A stretch of 64,000 nt of DNA from Escherichia coli (GTDB lineage: Bacteria; Pseudomonadota; Gammaproteobacteria; Enterobacterales; Enterobacteriaceae): the NCBI RefSeq assembly GCF_003334355.1, contig NZ_QOWP01000006.1; one strand, given 5' to 3'. Shown here one piece after another: positions 1,100 to 53,249 of the stretch (the stretch's first letter is position 1; the number at the start of each line of letters is the position of its first letter). The notes below the pieces were generated by a model. It was given only the letters and a program-made list of their open reading frames with translations. It made no database searches and had not been told where the DNA came from. The translations under genes were made by a program, and so were the position numbers.

Positions 1100-1240
1100 G
1101 ACTGCCGGATGCGGCGTGAACGCCTTATCCGGCCTACGGTTCAGGCACAAGTTTGTAGGCCTGATAAGACGGGTAAGCGTCGCATCAGGCAATGGTGCTC
1201 GGATGCCGGATGCGGCGTGAACGCCTTATCCGGCCTACGA
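1100..1240. repeat. REP/BIME cluster: three REP palindromes (two near-identical direct copies GCCGGATGCGGCGTGAACGCCTTATCCGGCCTAC flanking an inverted copy)
   Basis: Direct inspection: the same ~35 nt GC-rich palindromic unit occurs at about 1104..1138 and 1205..1239 with an inverted variant at about 1155..1190, in the gap between convergent copA and ybaQ. Confidence 0.85.
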
Positions 1241-1739: not shown

Positions 1740-2534
1740 ATGGATCTGTTGTACCGGGTAAAAACGCTTTGGGCCGCGCTGCGCGGTAATCATTACACCT
1801 GGCCTGCCATCGATATCACCCTCCCCGGCAATCGCCATTTTCATCTGATTGGCAGTATTCATATGGGTAGCCACGATATGGCTCCCCTGCCCACCCGTTT
1901 GCTCAAAAAGCTCAAAAACGCCGATGCGCTGATCGTCGAGGCGGATGTTTCCACCAGCGATACGCCTTTTGCTAATTTGCCTGCCTGCGAGGCGCTGGAA
2001 GAGCGCATTAGCGAGGAGCAACTCCAAAACCTGCAGCACATTAGCCAGGAGATGGGCATTTCTCCCTCACTCTTTTCTACCCAACCGCTGTGGCAAATCG
2101 CGATGGTTCTTCAGGCGACGCAGGCACAAAAACTGGGGCTGCGGGCAGAATACGGTATCGATTACCAGCTATTGCAGGCGGCGAAGCAACAACATAAACC
2201 CGTGATTGAACTGGAAGGGGCTGAAAACCAGATTGCCATGTTGCTCCAGCTCCCTGACAAAGGACTGGCGCTGCTGGACGATACGCTGACCCACTGGCAT
2301 ACCAACGCACGGTTGCTGCAACAAATGATGAGCTGGTGGCTGAATGCACCGCCGCAAAATAATGATATAACGCTGCCCAATACGTTCAGTCAGTCGCTGT
2401 ACGATGTGCTGATGCATCAGCGAAATCTCGCCTGGCGGGATAAATTACGCGCCATGCCGCCGGGGCGATATGTGGTCGCGGTCGGTGCACTACACCTGTA
2501 TGGAGAAGGGAATTTGCCGCAAATGTTGCGCTAA
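1740..2534 (+). CDS. ybaP: TraB/GumN-family protein YbaP
   Basis: ORF 1740..2534(+), 264 aa; preceded by GGAGG SD (aagggaggtcgtATG); protein recognised as E. coli YbaP. Confidence 0.85.
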   Translation: MDLLYRVKTLWAALRGNHYTWPAIDITLPGNRHFHLIGSIHMGSHDMAPLPTRLLKKLKNADALIVEADVSTSDTPFANLPACEALEERISEEQLQNLQHISQEMGISPSLFSTQPLWQIAMVLQATQAQKLGLRAEYGIDYQLLQAAKQQHKPVIELEGAENQIAMLLQLPDKGLALLDDTLTHWHTNARLLQQMMSWWLNAPPQNNDITLPNTFSQSLYDVLMHQRNLAWRDKLRAMPPGRYVVAVGALHLYGEGNLPQMLR

Positions 2535-2617
2535 AAAAATGGCCAATATCGCTATTGGCCCGTCAAAGAGGAATTTCATTTTTTTATTATTATGCCGTCA
2601 CTTTAAGCGACGGTGTA
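2535..2617 (-). ncRNA. chiX: Hfq-dependent small RNA ChiX (MicM/SroB)
   Basis: Minus-strand sequence ACACCGTCGCTTAAAGTGACGGCATAATAATAAAAAAATGAAATTCCTCTTTGACGGGCCAATAGCGATATTGGCCATTTTTTT: 5' stem-loop, AU-rich single-stranded stretch, then GC hairpin plus U-run terminator; lies in the ybaP-ybaK gap; not in the ORF track. Confidence 0.85.
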
Positions 2618-8289: not shown

Positions 8290-8380
8290 TATGTAGGCAT
8301 GATAAGACGCGCCAGCGTCGCATCAGGCATCGAGAGCCAAATGCCAGATGCGGCGTGAACGCCTTATCTGGCCTACGAAC
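8290..8380. repeat. REP/BIME cluster (two inverted REP units)
   Basis: GTAGGCATGATAAGACGCGCCAGCGTCGCATCAGGCA and TGCCAGATGCGGCGTGAACGCCTTATCTGGCCTAC between convergent ybaL and gsk. Confidence 0.85.
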
Positions 8381-8390
8381 CGACGATAAC

Positions 8391-9695
8391 TTAACGATCC
8401 CAGTAAGACTCTTCCAGGCTGTCTTCACGCTCCGGCAAGCCGCGCGTTAAACGAGGTGAATGCTGGTTCAGTACCTGATAGCTCACACGGTTAGCATATT
8501 TACACACCTGCGCTAACGATGAATAAGTTAACCAGGTGAATTTATGTTTGCTGGAGTTTGGTACGTTGCTACGATGGTAGCTGTTGGCGGTAATGTCATG
8601 CAGCAACGCTGCCAATGCGCCATCCCCCGCTCCATTAGTGTTCATGATTTTTTCCGGCCCGCCCATGTACGGCGCAATGTGCGAATATACACGCAGCGGA
8701 TTCTGGCAATCCTTGTGGCGCATGGCGCGGCTAAACTCATACTGGTTGAATTCCGCTATAGCGCCCGGCAGCAGCGGATGCTGGGTTTTACGTTTCGCTT
8801 CGTCTTCGGTAAAGCCCGCCATATACAAGCCGATTGGCCCGGCGGTGCACAGCACCAGATCTACCCAGTCCAGCGCCTTGTCAGATGCCAACAACGGATC
8901 GCTTTCTCCGGTCAACGCTTCGGCTTCATCTTCGTTCATCGCAAGGATAGAGACGTGGTCTTTGAGGAATTGCTGCCACCACTGCGGATTCTCGGCAATG
9001 ACAAACTTAGTTCCCAGCGTCAGCACCACCGGTACGTTATATTTCTTCGCGTACTCAATGGCTTTCATGGTTGCTTCCGGCATGGGTTCACCCGGCTTGC
9101 AACGCACCAGATAAGAGGTGAGAACCAGTGCCGAGGCTCCGGCAATCACATCTTCCGGAATACTTTCAGCCCGCAGCTGGTTCATGTGGCCAGGGCTGAT
9201 AGCAAAGGTACGTTCCCCGGACTCGCCAATCAGCGTAAAGCAACGACCAATCGGACCATCCACGCCTTGTAGATAGTTAAGATCGGTACGGCTGGAGGTG
9301 TTACACAGGTAACGATAGGCATAGCTGCCAATTTCAATATTGCTGCACATGACGCCCAGCAGCACCGAACGGTCGTCCGCGAGCACCGAGTAGTTGTGCA
9401 TGGTGTTACCAATAGTGCCACCCGCAAACTGATGGGTAATCAGGTTTTTCTGTTTTAGTTCCTGATAAAGCGCTTCGGCTACGTCATCCTCAATCACCAG
9501 TGAATGCCCGACGCTTAATCCATAACGCTCAATGAATTCGTCATCCACTTTCGCTTCAATATCGACCAGCGTTTGATCGATACCCACTACCCAGGCGGCG
9601 CTGGTTTCGTTTTCTGGCTGGAACTGCTGAAGCAGCGGATCGCGTGCATTTACAGGGAAGTAATGTTTGGATTTACGTTTACCGGGAAATTTCAT
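8391..9695 (-). CDS. gsk: Inosine-guanosine kinase
   Basis: ORF 8391..9695(-), 434 aa; pfkB-family sugar/nucleoside kinase features; recognised as Gsk. Confidence 0.92.
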   Translation of the reverse strand: MKFPGKRKSKHYFPVNARDPLLQQFQPENETSAAWVVGIDQTLVDIEAKVDDEFIERYGLSVGHSLVIEDDVAEALYQELKQKNLITHQFAGGTIGNTMHNYSVLADDRSVLLGVMCSNIEIGSYAYRYLCNTSSRTDLNYLQGVDGPIGRCFTLIGESGERTFAISPGHMNQLRAESIPEDVIAGASALVLTSYLVRCKPGEPMPEATMKAIEYAKKYNVPVVLTLGTKFVIAENPQWWQQFLKDHVSILAMNEDEAEALTGESDPLLASDKALDWVDLVLCTAGPIGLYMAGFTEDEAKRKTQHPLLPGAIAEFNQYEFSRAMRHKDCQNPLRVYSHIAPYMGGPEKIMNTNGAGDGALAALLHDITANSYHRSNVPNSSKHKFTWLTYSSLAQVCKYANRVSYQVLNQHSPRLTRGLPEREDSLEESYWDR

Positions 9696-23307: not shown

Positions 23308-23955
23308 TTATTCGTTAGTGGCAGGATTACGAAGCGTGGGGCACAGGAGATACATCTCCAGTAAGATGGCAACGTAATCGCGGGCTTCTTTTTTAAGATC
23401 AAAAGATTGCGGGGCAAAGAGCCAGTTTTCCATCAGGCCGGAAATATAGCCGCGCATAATAATTGCTGCGCGACGCGTCATTAAATCCGCAGGCAACATT
23501 TTCGCTTCAATACAATGTTTTAACGTTTGTTCTATACGGTCATAACTTTCCAGACAGAGATTACGTTGTGCCTGTTGCACAACAGCCATTTCTCCGACAA
23601 ATTCGCATTTGTGGAATATAATCTCCATCAATAATCGACGCCGTTCTTCTGTCACCGTGGATTCAAGAACATGAATTAATATCTCTCTTAATACTGAGAG
23701 TGGATCGCCAGGGAATTTTGCCTGATACTCAAGCTCTAGTTCACCAATATTGGATTCTGACAGTTCCCAGATCTCACTGAACAAATCCGACTTGTCTTTA
23801 AAATGCCAGTAGATTGCACCGCGCGTAACGCCAGCTGCTTTTGCAATCTCGCCCAGCGAGGTGGATGATACCCCCTGCTGTGAGAAAAGACGTAGAGCCA
23901 CATCGAGGATGTGTTGGCGCGTTTCTTGCGCTTCTTGTTTGGTTTTTCGTGCCAT
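23308..23955 (-). CDS. acrR: TetR-family repressor AcrR
   Basis: ORF 23308..23955(-), 215 aa; N-terminal TetR HTH ([25 protein letters not shown]); divergent from acrAB. Confidence 0.95.
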
Positions 23956-33154: not shown

Positions 33155-33268
33155 GGGTGGGGGCCCTGCCAGCTACATCCCGGCACACGCGTCATCTGCC
33201 TTGGCTGCTTCCTTCCGGACCTGACCTGGTAAACAGAGTAGCGTTGCGGGAGAACCAACAGAGCCCCC
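33155..33268 (-). ncRNA. ffs: 4.5S RNA (signal recognition particle RNA)
   Basis: Minus strand reads GGGGGCTCTGTTGGTTCTCCCGCAACGCTACTCTGTTTACCAGGTCAGGTCCGGAAGGAAGCAGCCAAGGCAGATGACGCGTGTGCCGGGATGTAGCTGGCAGGGCCCCCACCC, the canonical 114 nt E. coli ffs, including the conserved domain IV GGAA tetraloop region. Confidence 0.95.
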
Positions 33269-35463: not shown

Positions 35464-36750
35464 TTACGCGTTATAGGCATTCTCGCCGTGGCTGTTGACA
35501 TCCAGCCCTTCTCGCTCCTGCTCTTCCGGTACACGCAGACCAACCGTCAGATCCGCCAATTTGTAGCCGATAAATGCCACAACACCGGACCAGACGATCG
35601 TAATGGCGATGCTTTCCAGCTGTACCAGCAACTGATGGCCCATCGTCACACCTTCAGCGAAGCCCACGCCGCCCAGCGAGCTGGCGGCAAAAATCCCGGT
35701 CATGATACAGCCGACAATGCCACAAACGCCGTGCACACCGAAGACATCGCAGGGATCATCCACCCGCAGCAAGCGTTTGAGCATGGTAACGCCCCACAAG
35801 CCCGCCAGACCAGCTACCACGCCGATAATCAACGCGCCGCCAACCCCAATGTAGCCGCAGGCTGGCGTCACGCCGACCAGACCGGCAATCGCGCCAGAAC
35901 ACGCCCCCAGCAGTGAAGGCTTACCACGCAGCGCCCATTCACCGAAGATCCAGCCAAGAATTGCCGCCGCCGTTGCGACCACAGTATTCACAAATGCCAG
36001 TGCCGCGATTTCATTCGCCGTGCCCGCTGACCCGGCGTTAAAGCCAAACCAACCGATATAGAGAATGGCAGTCCCGGTGAAGACCATCGGCAGGTTGTGC
36101 GGTTTAAACGCCTCTTTACCGAAGCCCACGCGTTTTCCTATCAGATACGCGCCCACCAGACCGGCGATTGCGGCGTTAATGTGCACCACGGTGCCACCCG
36201 CGAAATCCAGCGCACCGTGAGAAGCCAGCAAACCACCGCCCCACACCATATGCGCAATCGGAATGTAAGAGAGCGTCAGCCATACCACCACGAAAATCAA
36301 CACAGCTGAGAAGCGGATTCGTTCCGCCAGCGCCCCAACTATCAAGCCGACGGTAATGCAGGCAAACGATCCCTGAAACGCCACGTGGATATACTGATAA
36401 ATGCTGCCCATCACCGCCGTCAGTTCGATGTTTTTCAGCATCAACCAGTTAATGTTGCCGAAGAAGTTGTTGCCCTCACCAAACGCCAGCGAGTAACCGT
36501 AAACCACCCAGAGAATACAGACCAGTGCAAATGTCACCGTCACCTGCGTCAGCATCGACAGCACGTTTTTGCCGCGAATCAACCCACCGTAAAACAGGGC
36601 AATCCCCGGAATAGTCATAAACAGCACCAGCGCAGTACAAATCATCATAAACGCATTGTCGGCTTTATCGGCCACCGCAGGTGCAGCCATTACCAGTCCC
36701 GGAAGCATCGCCAGTGAAGCAAGCCCAGTTTTTATCGTCGCTATCTTCAT
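35464..36750 (-). CDS. amtB: Ammonium channel AmtB
   Basis: ORF 35464..36750(-), 428 aa; signal peptide then 11-TM Amt/MEP fold; translationally adjacent to glnK. Confidence 0.96.
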   Translation of the reverse strand: MKIATIKTGLASLAMLPGLVMAAPAVADKADNAFMMICTALVLFMTIPGIALFYGGLIRGKNVLSMLTQVTVTFALVCILWVVYGYSLAFGEGNNFFGNINWLMLKNIELTAVMGSIYQYIHVAFQGSFACITVGLIVGALAERIRFSAVLIFVVVWLTLSYIPIAHMVWGGGLLASHGALDFAGGTVVHINAAIAGLVGAYLIGKRVGFGKEAFKPHNLPMVFTGTAILYIGWFGFNAGSAGTANEIAALAFVNTVVATAAAILGWIFGEWALRGKPSLLGACSGAIAGLVGVTPACGYIGVGGALIIGVVAGLAGLWGVTMLKRLLRVDDPCDVFGVHGVCGIVGCIMTGIFAASSLGGVGFAEGVTMGHQLLVQLESIAITIVWSGVVAFIGYKLADLTVGLRVPEEQEREGLDVNSHGENAYNA

Positions 36751-36779
36751 TTTTCGTTCCTGTTGCTGTGTGCCAGAGA

Positions 36780-37118
36780 TTACAGCGCCGCTTCGTCGGC
36801 TTCGCCGGTACGAATACGAATGACGCGTTGCAATTCAGCGACGAAGATTTTGCCGTCGCCAATTTTTCCGGTGTAAGCCGCCTTACTGACGATATCGATC
36901 ACTTCATCGAGTTGGTCATCAGCAATCGCCACATCAATTTTTACTTTTGGCAGGAAATTGACGCTGTATTCCGCCCCCCGGTACAGCTCGGCATGCCCTT
37001 TCTGACGCCCGAAACCTTTCACTTCGGTGACGGTCAGGCCCTGAATACCAATGGAAGATAACGCTTCACGAACGTCTTCCAGCTTGAATGGTTTGATTAT
37101 CACGGTCACCAGCTTCAT
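36780..37118 (-). CDS. glnK: Nitrogen regulatory protein PII-2 GlnK
   Basis: Start at MKLVTVIIKPFKL inside ORF 36780..37256(-) gives 112 aa; PII T-loop with Tyr51 (RGAEY). Confidence 0.95.
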   Translation of the reverse strand: MKLVTVIIKPFKLEDVREALSSIGIQGLTVTEVKGFGRQKGHAELYRGAEYSVNFLPKVKIDVAIADDQLDEVIDIVSKAAYTGKIGDGKIFVAELQRVIRIRTGEADEAAL

Positions 37119-37159
37119 AGATCCCCTCCGGTCAGAATTCGGTAATGGTTCTGCTACAC

Positions 37160-37176
37160 GAAGAAGGTATTGCAAG
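37160..37176 (-). promoter_or_regulatory. sigma54 (-24/-12) promoter of glnK-amtB
   Basis: Minus strand reads TGGCACACCGCTTGCAA, an exact match to the TGGCAC-N5-TTGCA sigma54 consensus, about 40 nt upstream of the glnK ATG. Confidence 0.85.
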
Positions 37177-37239
37177 CGGTGTGCCAGAAATGAAAAACGA
37201 GAAAGAGAGCAGGAAGTTAAGAAGTTTGAAAATGAAAAC

Positions 37240-37254
37240 GCACTATGACAGTGC
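37240..37254. promoter_or_regulatory. Candidate NtrC enhancer half-site pair (GCAC-N7-GTGC) upstream of the glnK sigma54 promoter
   Basis: GCACTATGACAGTGC dyad located about 70-90 bp upstream of the -24/-12 element, the usual enhancer position. Confidence 0.5.
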
Positions 37255-37298
37255 ACAGTGCGTTACATTTTTGCACCAACGATGAAATATTGCGCTAT

Positions 37299-40845
<3,547 letters not shown>

Positions 40846-45354: not shown

Positions 45355-47800
<2,446 letters not shown>

Positions 47801-48472: not shown

Positions 48473-50827
48473 CTATTTTGCAGTCACAACCTGCATGCCA
48501 GACGGTTCATTTTGCAGCGCCAGAGTCAGAACTTCCTCAATGCGCTTCACAGGATGAATGTCCAGATCGGCAATTACGTTGTCAGGAATCTCTTCCAGAT
48601 CGCGTTTATTTTCGAACGGAATTAACACTGTTTTAATCCCGCCGCGATGCGCTGCCAGGAGTTTTTCTTTCAAACCACCGATCGGCAGTACCTGACCACG
48701 CAGAGTGATCTCACCGGTCATTGCCACATCGGCACGAACCGGGTTACCGGTCAGGCAAGAAACCAGCGCGGTGCACATAGCAATACCGGCACTCGGACCA
48801 TCTTTCGGCGTCGCACCTTCCGGTACGTGGACGTGGATGTCGCGTTTTTCGTAAAAATCAGGGTTGATCCCCAGTTTTTCCGCACGCGCACGAACCACCG
48901 TTAACGCCGCCTGAATGGACTCCTGCATCACTTCGCCGAGCGAACCGGTATAGGTCAGTTTGCCTTTACCCGGAACACATGCGGTTTCAATGGTCAGCAA
49001 GTCACCGCCCACTTCCGTCCACGCCAGACCGGTTACCTGACCGACACGGTTTTCGTTATCCGCGCGACCATAGTCGAAACGCTGAACACCGAGATAGTCA
49101 TGCAGGTTATCGCCGTTAATTTCGATATGTTTTAATGACTTATCGAGCAGTAACTGCTTAACCGCTTTGCGACACAGTTTGGAGATTTCACGCTCCAGAC
49201 CACGCACGCCCGCCTCACGGGTGTAGTAACGAATAATGCCGATAATGGCGCTATCGTCGACGGTCAGCTCACCTTTTTTCAGTGCATTACGTTCAATCTG
49301 CTTCGGCAGCAGGTGACGTTTGGCGATGTTCAGTTTTTCATCTTCGGTATAACCGGAGAGGCGAATCACTTCCATACGATCCAGCAGCGGTGCCGGAATG
49401 TTCATGGAGTTCGACGTCGCGACAAACATCACGTCGCTGAGATCGTAATCCACTTCCAGGTAGTGGTCGCTGAACGCTACGTTCTGCTCTGGATCCAGCA
49501 CTTCAAGCAGTGCAGAGGCCGGATCGCCACGCATGTCAGAAGACATTTTGTCGATCTCATCGAGCAGGAACAGCGGGTTTTTCACGCCCACTTTCGCCAT
49601 TTTCTGGATCAGTTTACCCGGCATAGAACCGATGTAAGTACGGCGGTGACCACGGATTTCCGCTTCATCACGCACGCCGCCCAGCGCCATACGGACATAT
49701 TTACGCCCGGTGGCTTTGGCAATGGACTGACCAAGAGAGGTTTTACCTACCCCCGGCGGCCCTACCAGGCAGAGGATCGGTCCCTTGATTTTGTTGACAC
49801 GGCTTTGAACCGCAAGATACTCAAGGATTCGATCTTTCACGCGCTCCAGACCATAATGGTCGGTATCAAGGATTTCCTGCGCCTGACGCAGGTCTTTTTT
49901 GACCTTGCTACGCGCATTCCACGGCACCTGTACCATCCAGTCGATATAACCACGCACTACGGTCGCTTCTGCCGACATCGGAGACATCATTTTCAGCTTC
50001 TGCAACTCTGCTTCCGCTTTCTCTTTTGCTTCTTTCGGCATCTTCGCCGCGTCGATTTTGCGCTTCAGGGCTTCGTTTTCGTCCGGCGCGTCGTCCATTT
50101 CACCGAGTTCTTTCTGAATAGCTTTCATTTGCTCGTTCAGATAGTACTCACGCTGGGATTTCTCCATCTGCTTTTTAACGCGGTTGCGAATGCGTTTCTC
50201 AACCTGCAGCAGATCGATTTCCGATTCCATCATTGCCATCAGATATTCCAGACGTTCGTTAACGTCGGACATCTCCAGAACGGACTGTTTGTCAGCCAGT
50301 TTCAGCGGCATATGTGCAGCAATGGTATCCGCCAGACGCGCCGGATCGTCGATGCTATTCAACGACGTCAGCACTTCTGGTGGGATTTTTTTGTTCAGCT
50401 TGATGTAGCCTTCGAACTGGCTGATTGCAGTACGCACCAGCACTTCCTGTTCTCGCTCATCAATGGTCGGCGACTCCAGATACTCCGCCTTCGCAGAAAA
50501 GTGTTCGCCATTGTCAGAGAGCGCAGAAATACGCGCGCGCTGTAACCCCTCGACCAGCACTTTGACGGTGCCGTCAGGCAGCTTCAGCATCTGCAATATA
50601 GAGGCCACGGTCCCGACGGTGAAAAGATCGTTTACACCCGGCTCATCCGTTGAAGCTTCTTTCTGCGCGACCAGCATAATTTTTTTATCATGGTCCATCG
50701 CCGCTTCCAGACAACGGATAGATTTTTCCCGCCCGACAAATAAGGGGATGACCATGTGCGGATAAACCACCACATCGCGCAGCGGCAATACGGGGATTTC
50801 AATGCGTTCAGAACGCTCAGGATTCAT
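48473..50827 (-). CDS. lon: ATP-dependent protease Lon
   Basis: Start at [18 protein letters not shown] inside ORF 48473..50872(-) gives 784 aa; Walker [10 protein letters not shown]; protease Ser-Lys dyad region PKDGPSAG. Confidence 0.97.
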
Positions 50828-53146: not shown

Positions 53147-53217
53147 CATAACAATCTTTTGTTGTTACGCTAACACCGAAAGAGGCTTTTCGCACGGTTC
53201 CATGCAAAATTCATGAC

Positions 53218-53249
53218 AAAAAAAAGCCCACCACCTGGCGGTGACGGGC
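53218..53249 (-). terminator. Rho-independent terminator downstream of tig
   Basis: Minus strand GGCCCGTCACCGCCAGGTGGTGGGC followed by TTTTTTTT, directly after the tig stop. Confidence 0.65.

Follow-up and report, generated by a model that had tools for sequence, protein, structure and literature searches.

The 180-nt spacer between the mdlB stop codon and the glnK ATG, within the 64,000-nt stretch of Escherichia coli DNA that we analysed (the window), contains both a sigma54 -24/-12 element and an upstream NtrC dyad. We identify this region, with a probability of about 0.93, as glnKp, the E. coli promoter that drives glnK-amtB and depends on both sigma54 and NtrC. This promoter was reportedly studied by van Heeswijk et al. 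in 1996 and by Atkinson et al. in 2002. It is curated in EcoCyc and RegulonDB at the same locus and with the same sequence, and we find no difference from those entries, the published coordinates being matched exactly. Because published data match both motifs, the interpretation is supported and is already in the databases, and the promoter finding as stated is already known, with nothing new in it. The coordinates of the motifs, the occupancy of the spacer by sigma54 and NtrC, and the NtrC-dependent induction of glnK by nitrogen starvation are matters of sequence or of published record. The initial annotation held that the nitrogen-starvation control logic of the operon could be read directly from the DNA, a proposal that published binding and induction data, together with footprinting, support. 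Three points were not found stated in the literature searched, namely the overlap of a terminator-like hairpin with the NtrC site, the conserved upstream half-site described below and the quantisation of the spacer by helical turns across species; the first and third are modest side observations.

The window is K-12-type DNA in which mdlA, mdlB, glnK and amtB are all co-oriented on the minus strand, as judged from the list of open reading frames and the sequence (Table 1). The 701 bases around the motifs are 100% identical to those of E. coli K-12 MG1655 and are present in single copy in 5424 of 5426 complete E. coli genomes, where the annotation reads mdlB, glnK, amtB. Published genome coordinates (U00096.2) were converted by subtracting them from 508940, with the glnK start at 471822 as anchor. 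The conversion agrees with two independent published positions, 471761 and 471693.

Table 1. Features of the mdlA-mdlB-glnK-amtB locus, in window coordinates
Feature	Position	Strand	Basis
mdlA	40845..39073	minus	ORF list
mdlB stop codon TGA	37301..37299	minus	ORF list; MdlB C-terminus alignment (15 Enterobacterales loci); annotation
Candidate second, weak NtrC site	37272..37288, centre 37280 (-120)		Conserved half-site; binding inferred
Terminator-like hairpin overlapping the NtrC site	37227..37264	minus	Terminator scan; RNA fold; homologue pairing
Main NtrC (NRI) site, TGCACTGTCATAGTGCG, read on minus	37239..37255, centre 37247		Published site position; conservation
Sigma54 -24/-12 element of glnKp, CTGGCACACCGCTTGCA	37187..37171	minus	Pattern and weight-matrix scan; ChIP-seq motif identity
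CT-rich CCTTCTT, published anti-Shine-Dalgarno "insulator" of glnKp	37167..37161 (-7..-1)	minus	bioRxiv 10.1101/086108
Predicted glnK transcription start, ~37160	37158..37161	minus	Rule of PMC4591121 Table 1; inferred
glnK Shine-Dalgarno GGAGGGG	37129..37123	minus	Read from sequence
glnK	ATG 37118..37116, stop 36780	minus	ORF translation MKLVTVIIKPFKL; RefSeq annotation glnK
amtB	36750..35464	minus	ORF list

The promoter element is the stronger of the two motifs on sequence grounds, being statistically sound by itself as the dyad is not. Its core, TGGCACACCGCTTGCA, spans 37186..37171 on the minus strand and extends to 37170 with the trailing A, and its two conserved doublets, GG at 37185/37184 and GC at 37173/37172, lie 10 bp apart. 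The initial annotation described an element that matches the sigma54 consensus at every conserved position, and the scans confirm this. The exact pattern TGGCAC-N5-TTGCA occurs once on both strands of the window, against 0.05 occurrences expected, and at least one exact match appears in only 4 of 100 shuffles of the window. The sole departure from the extended consensus TGGCACG-N4-TTGCW is a weakly conserved G replaced by A. We also built a weight matrix from 41 other intergenic sense motifs defined by sigma54 ChIP-seq (Bonocora et al., PMC4591121). With this matrix, a scan of the kind proposed in the annotation gives the glnKp element 16.2 bits, compared with a training median of 16.0, and places it third among approximately 128,000 window positions. 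The first-ranked position is the published site upstream of clpP, which is itself in the training set, and the fourth is the published acrR site.

Occupancy of this element is documented in published data. The sigma54 ChIP-seq peak OS03, centred at 471768 and assigned to glnK as its downstream gene, carries the motif CTGGCACACCGCTTGCA centred at 471761 and is enriched 18-fold above threshold (PMC4591121). On conversion, 471761 falls at window position 37179, the exact centre of the element in Table 1. Moreover, genomic SELEX (Shimada et al. 2021, PMC8743547) recovers the mdlB/glnK spacer whether it is run with RpoN holoenzyme, with NtrC or with the two combined.

The transcription start is predicted at about 37160, 19 bp downstream from the motif centre, which gives a leader of 42 nt. 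The published table lists the glnK promoter at a "distance 42" from glnK, with the EcoCyc status "P" (predicted) as of 2015 (PMC4591121 Table 1), and our literature search found no mapped glnK start. That the start is only predicted leaves room for the idea that the sigma54 motif is non-productive and that glnK-amtB is driven by some other promoter or by read-through from mdlAB, particularly as most of the 135 E. coli sigma54 ChIP-seq sites are intragenic and of unknown output. The glnKp motif, however, is intergenic, lies on the same strand as glnK and has its predicted start 42 nt before the ATG; a promoter scan of 36600..37500 detected no sigma70-like promoter that could take its place. Expression data also argue against the idea. 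Nitrogen run-out raises the level of glnK mRNA, which in a strain deleted for glnG is hard to detect (PMC4066584), and the cloned orthologous promoter of Salmonella is sigma54-dependent and rises from 1.1 Miller units under nitrogen-replete conditions to 1778 under nitrogen limitation, an induction of roughly 1600-fold (PMC3844500). As for read-through, the terminator-like hairpin and the masking of the ribosome-binding site, both described below, appear to block it. We therefore give almost no credence to a non-productive motif and retain the sigma54 element as the promoter of glnK-amtB. Schumacher et al. 2013 (PMC3870243) describe glnKp as a "simpler" promoter that relies solely on phosphorylated NtrC (NtrC-P) and needs more of it; in starved cells, the NtrC activity that they report at this promoter is 400-fold higher.

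The masking of the ribosome-binding site has a published counterpart. Levy et al. (bioRxiv 10.1101/086108) reported that glnKp silences a downstream gene that is transcribed by read-through, in a manner that is independent of rpoN and dependent on orientation, and traced the silencing to seven CT-rich nucleotides, centred at -4, that are able to pair with the Shine-Dalgarno sequence. Indeed, glnKp is the founding example of the CT-rich anti-Shine-Dalgarno insulators described for sigma54 promoters in that study. In our folds of the native sequence, the pairing probability of the glnK Shine-Dalgarno is 0.99 in read-through RNAs versus 0.52 in the transcript that starts at 37160, so that the native glnK fold reproduces the masking of Levy et al. 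2017. Their observations were made on synthetic read-through constructs carrying a 50-bp promoter fragment, whereas the hairpin that we describe lies 70 bp upstream and outside that fragment. A further CT-rich stretch is found at approximately 37199..37223.

The second motif, the dyad GCACTATGACAGTGC (GCAC-N7-GTGC), is present exactly at 37240..37254, as the initial annotation had it, and its centre, 37247, is 68 bp upstream from that of the promoter and at -87 relative to the predicted start. The annotation placed it "about 80 bp" further upstream, which is a fair approximation because the true distances are 68 and 87 bp. Taken by itself, this pattern is at chance frequency, with two occurrences in the window against 2.04 expected. 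The 17-mer TGCACTGTCATAGTGCG agrees with the NtrC consensus TGCACCA-N3-TGGTGCA at 10 of 14 specified positions; in a scan of a single strand of the window, seven sites score better and 28 tie with it, making 35 that are as good or better. A consensus scan that allows up to three mismatches lists seven unrelated sites and misses the glnK dyad, because the dyad has four mismatches, and this enhancer would thus have escaped consensus scanning used alone. The significance of the dyad derives instead from its position, its conservation and the published binding data.

With regard to binding, Aquino et al. 2017 (PMC5217608 Additional file 1) place the NtrC site already known for glnK-amtB at 471693, which converts to 37247, the exact centre of the dyad. 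The NtrC ChIP-seq summit in that study is at 471706, 13 bp from the listed site and 116 bp from the gene start, with a coverage of 107 (PMC5217608). An NtrC ChIP-seq bin from starved cells, 471741-471821, is enriched 39.7-fold (Brown et al. 2014, PMC4066584), and corresponds to window positions 37199..37119. This bin covers the core promoter and the leader and not the dyad, an offset that is within ChIP-seq resolution, although the bin does not itself confirm the dyad. Direct binding of NtrC at the dyad is nonetheless supported, by way of secondary published tables.

A perfect consensus half-site, TGGTGCA (37278..37272), lies 33 bp, or three helical turns, upstream of the main NtrC site, and forms the promoter-proximal half of a candidate second site whose other half is unmatched in E. 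coli. The sequence TGGTGCAA is kept in eight of nine aligned Enterobacteriaceae spacers despite diverged flanks, and the corresponding 17-mer in Citrobacter has three mismatches at the identical 33-bp spacing. The half-site is absent from the known-site list of PMC5217608, in which glnK-amtB has one site. A one-and-a-half-site enhancer would fit the published finding that glnK requires more NtrC-P than glnA does (PMC3870243). In Enterobacter, Yersinia and Acerihabitans, a further NtrC-like site that E. coli does not have is found approximately 62 bp upstream of the main site, and in the Enterobacter loci it directly adjoins the mdlB stop codon. A third NtrC site in E. coli, TGCA-N9-CGCA centred at 37267, was considered and rejected, as it has five mismatches and is off the 33-bp register.

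These observations bear on the possibility that NtrC acts mainly elsewhere in the spacer, either at the upstream TGGTGCA or within 37119..37199 under the bin of Brown et al., and that the dyad is secondary. That bin does lie 50-130 bp downstream of the dyad, and the upstream half-site is perfect and conserved while the dyad departs from the consensus at four positions. However, the sequence under the bin contains no GCAC-N7-GTGC and no match to the NtrC consensus with three or fewer mismatches, and the higher-resolution summit at 471706 is only 13 bp from the dyad. The upstream element is merely a half-site in E. coli, and it is the full dyad that is phased with the promoter across species, as shown below. 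A principal site of action other than the dyad is consequently very unlikely, and we take the dyad to be the main NtrC site of glnKp.

Conservation of the two motifs was assessed by scanning species-representative genomes for GlnK, which yielded 79 loci, and by examining 15 Enterobacterales loci. The mdlB gene is upstream of glnK in 14 of the 15, the exception being an Orbaceae genome. All 15 carry a sigma54 motif with zero to two mismatches, located 59-104 nt upstream of the glnK ATG, and dyad and promoter are both kept in every Enterobacterales locus examined. From Escherichia to Yersinia and Photorhabdus, the dyad that precedes glnK takes the form [TC]GCACY-N5-TGGTGCG. Orthologous dyads in other genera have one to three mismatches to the NtrC consensus and are therefore closer to it than that of E. 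coli; for example, the Superficieibacter dyad TGCACCAGCATGGTGCG has one mismatch and an Enterobacter dyad, TGCACCGTCATGGTGCG, has two. Alignment of nine Enterobacteriaceae spacers reveals four conserved islands amid divergent sequence, which read TGGTGCAAAA; AACGCA..TGCAC-N7-GTGCGTTTT; CTGGCAY-N5-TTGC; and, at the end of the leader, GAATTCTGACYGGAGGGGATCT. Among 45 Escherichia-type sequences, the positions that vary fall outside the GG/GC cores, which are invariant, and outside both the GCAC/GTGC arms and the half-site further upstream.

A broader sample came from a metagenome scan with an enhancer pattern spanning the first two islands, which returned 120 matches. A sigma54 motif and a glnK start are found downstream in 117 of these; one of the remaining three has an unrelated flank. 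An insertion is present in one locus (L189). In total, a dyad precedes a sigma54 promoter in 102 distinct orthologous upstream regions, at a spacing of 68-133 bp in nearly all of them.

Within this range the distances from the promoter to the nearest dyad are not spread evenly, but cluster at 68-69, 78-80, 89-92, 100-101, 110-112, 121-124 and 132-133 bp. The clusters form a lattice of 69, 79, 90, 101, 111, 123 and 133 bp, with a best period of 10.7 bp (R = 0.88). The observed periodicity is not matched by any of 20,000 random sets of distinct distances, and under a conservative null that uses one value per cluster, 274 of 20,000 random sets match it. The same lattice is seen in independent lineages, including Pseudomonas (91-92 bp) and Chitinibacter and Andreprevotia (110 bp). 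This comparison of sequences suggests that the spacer may have grown and shrunk during evolution only by whole helical turns of about 10.7 bp. Spacing by whole helical turns would be expected if an enhancer has to face its promoter across a short loop, and it provides functional evidence that the dyad is the enhancer of glnKp.

The dyad also lies within a structure of a different kind. In the RNA sense, the 11-bp stem AACGCACTGTG / CATAGTGCGTT (37264..37254 with 37247..37237) encloses a 6-nt loop, CACTGT, and is followed by the tail TTTTCATTTTC; a terminator scan calls AACGCACTGTGCACTGTCATAGTGCGTT followed by TTCATTTTCA at 37264..37237 on the minus strand. The hairpin starts 35 nt past the mdlB TGA, in the orientation of the operon. 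Folding over 76 nt gives -23 kcal/mol (z = -3.2), a stability reached by none of 200 shuffles, and the hairpin alone accounts for -14.6 kcal/mol. The right half of the NtrC site supplies its 3' arm, and most of its 5' arm (AACGCAC) is outside the NtrC 17-mer.

The hairpin is retained among 57 distinct homologues. Standard pairs occupy 93.8% of their stem cells, a figure obtained with a search pattern that fixed several stem columns, and the median hairpin energy is -14.6 kcal/mol versus -5.1 kcal/mol for shuffles. Alignment columns 14 and 27 covary (C-G in 44, U-A in 10, U-G in one and unpaired in two), possibly through a single evolutionary event, and the 5' partner is outside the NtrC 17-mer. 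At least seven of the eight bases that follow GTGCG are T in 49 of the 57, mostly as a run of eight T, and the terminator called in a Klebsiella/Enterobacter-like contig consists of the NtrC 17-mer itself together with eight consecutive T. On the strength of these features, the hairpin and T-run probably terminate mdlAB transcripts. Both mdlB and glnK are absent from the 3'-end tables of PMC7815308, a text search for mdlB and terminator returned nothing relevant, and an RNA family at the glnK locus was not found in Rfam.

It might then be asked whether the dyad is only the intrinsic terminator of mdlAB, its likeness to an NtrC site being accidental and the real enhancer being elsewhere or absent. 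The position of the dyad inside an 11-bp hairpin with a T-rich tail, 35 nt past the mdlB stop, speaks for such an explanation, as do the stem pairing of the 57 homologues with its one covarying pair and the chance frequency of GCAC-N7-GTGC. However, the dyad is kept in Yersinia, Rahnella, Acerihabitans and Photorhabdus without a T-run or a terminator-like site in the spacer, and its sequence itself, [TC]GCAC...TGGTGCG, is conserved beyond what pairing demands. A terminator, moreover, would not need helical phasing to a sigma54 promoter, and the dyad coincides with the listed NtrC site and a ChIP-seq summit. A dyad that serves termination alone is thus highly improbable. Given that our scan of the Yersinia and Rahnella spacers detects the dyad, no T-run and no terminator-like site anywhere, the NtrC site appears to be ancestral and the terminator shape appears to be an overlay acquired within the Enterobacteriaceae. 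Whether the main NtrC site in this family doubles as the stem of the mdlAB terminator, so that one 28-bp element would act both as a DNA switch and as an RNA hairpin, is a question on which we consider the odds to be evenly balanced.

Other promoters of the nitrogen regulon provide a useful comparison. An architectural protein, IHF or ArgR, acts between enhancer and promoter at glnHp2 and astC, whereas the spacer of glnKp is short and T-rich. These two promoters and nac share both regulon and architecture with glnKp, and all appear in the sigma54 ChIP-seq and NtrC site tables. The archetypal NtrC enhancer, that of glnAp2 in E. coli and Salmonella, likewise combines a sigma54 -24/-12 element with upstream dyads bound by NtrC-P. 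Its sites at -140 and -108 are 32 bp, or about three turns, apart, compared with positions of about -120 and -87 for the two elements of glnKp. The glnAp2 enhancer comprises two strong and three low-affinity sites and overlaps a sigma70 promoter, glnAp1, whereas glnKp, which lacks a sigma70 promoter, has one site with a 10/14 match plus a half-site closer to the promoter. This sparser enhancer fits the published description of glnKp as "simpler" and in need of more NtrC-P.

The combined data are consistent with the following mechanism. Sigma54 RNA polymerase would form a closed complex on CTGGCACACCGCTTGCA that is unable to open the DNA by itself. On nitrogen run-out, NtrB would phosphorylate NtrC, and NtrC-P would then bind the dyad TGCACTGTCATAGTGCG centred at -87 and probably also use the conserved TGGTGCA half-site centred at -120. 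Oligomerised NtrC-P is expected to reach the polymerase by looping the T-rich spacer of approximately 70 bp and to open the promoter through ATP hydrolysis, so that transcription would proceed from about 37160 through the 42-nt leader and into glnK and amtB. A likely additional layer of control is that the hairpin and T-run end mdlAB transcripts, and that in any read-through RNA the ribosome-binding site of glnK is masked by the CT-rich segment at -7..-1. Hairpin and masking would jointly silence glnK-amtB unless NtrC fires the promoter.

As a known promoter, glnKp serves here as a positive control, since a reader working from sequence only located a real pair of enhancer and promoter. The wider interest lies in how the spacer is used. 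An enhancer folded into an upstream terminator would represent a tight reuse of intergenic sequence, and would matter wherever glnKp is employed as a synthetic part. If the dual role is true, the same element both switches glnK on and stops upstream transcription from leaking into it, and these functions would be coupled if bound NtrC, perhaps by acting as a roadblock, also changes how far mdlAB transcription terminates or reads through. Finally, spacer lengths that change by helical turns in approximately 100 natural variants offer a clean comparative demonstration of the face-of-the-helix constraint on short-range bacterial enhancers.

The main NtrC site of glnKp, the sigma54/NtrC promoter of glnK-amtB, is contained within a terminator-like hairpin that begins 35 nt after the stop codon of the upstream gene mdlB. 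This hairpin is kept across the Enterobacteriaceae, with one pair covarying, and is absent from Yersinia and Rahnella. Window position 37225 (minus strand) falls at a point of the spacer that no motif covers, and carries A in the K-12-type window (CAAACTT) versus T in 33 of 45 retrieved Escherichia-type sequences (CAATCTT).

Spacing between the NtrC dyad and the sigma54 promoter was compared for window 37171..37255 together with loci L001-L199. Across ∼100 distinct orthologous regions, the two elements are separated by 69, 79, 90, 101, 111, 123 or 133 bp. These values correspond to whole turns of the helix, and the best-fitting period is 10.7 bp. In L189, a metagenome contig resembling E. coli, the dyad is directly followed by an insertion of ∼180 bp (minus strand, ∼8728..8910 of that contig) that is GC-rich and repeat-like and takes the place of the T-run, such that the enhancer-promoter distance becomes 248 bp. 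This locus is a natural variant in which enhancer and terminator are parted.

Enterobacter, Yersinia and Acerihabitans carry an additional NtrC-like site, placed ∼62 bp further upstream than the main site. In Enterobacter it directly adjoins the mdlB stop codon; E. coli lacks it. The candidate half-site TGGTGCA of the window is missing from the published list of known NtrC sites. The sole other copy of GCAC-N7-GTGC in the window is GCACTTTGACGGTGC (50557..50571).

When the window is scored with a weight matrix built from ChIP-defined sigma54 sites, CTGGCATTATTAATGCT (45576..45592, plus strand) reaches 16.5, which is above the score of glnKp. This match does not appear in the high-stringency sigma54 ChIP-seq tables, and could be a site of low stringency or one that sigma54 does not bind. 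Two other strong matches coincide with published ChIP-seq sites. Elements matched by Rfam above the gathering score are all known E. coli features, and no such match was found at the glnKp/NtrC-dyad site.

Features of the window, with coordinates and strand
Feature	Position	Strand	Remarks
Terminator-like hairpin	37227..37264	-	11-bp stem, -14.6 kcal/mol, T-rich tail
Candidate NtrC half-site TGGTGCA	37272..37288		33 bp upstream of main NtrC site; consensus half, conserved
CCTTCTT	37161..37167	-	-7..-1; predicted partner of glnK Shine-Dalgarno
glnK Shine-Dalgarno GGAGGGG	37123..37129	-	
Strong sigma54 matrix match	53203..53219	-	ChIP-seq site OS02, upstream of clpP
Strong sigma54 matrix match	23914..23930	+	ChIP-seq site IA05, within acrR, antisense
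sraA	50899..50994		Rfam
dnaX frameshift element	16296..16360		Rfam
sroB	2533..2616		Rfam
naRNA4 (two copies) and SRP RNA, in listing order	1158..1235, 8296..8373, 33164..33260		Rfam

Read-through RNAs are the only transcripts for which pairing of CCTTCTT with the glnK Shine-Dalgarno sequence is predicted (pairing probability 0.99 versus 0.52), and the published glnKp “insulator” agrees with this prediction. The final 22 nt of the leader, GAATTCTGACCGGAGGGGATCT (37119..37140, minus strand), are near-invariant across the Enterobacteriaceae, a degree of conservation that exceeds the need of a ribosome-binding site by itself.
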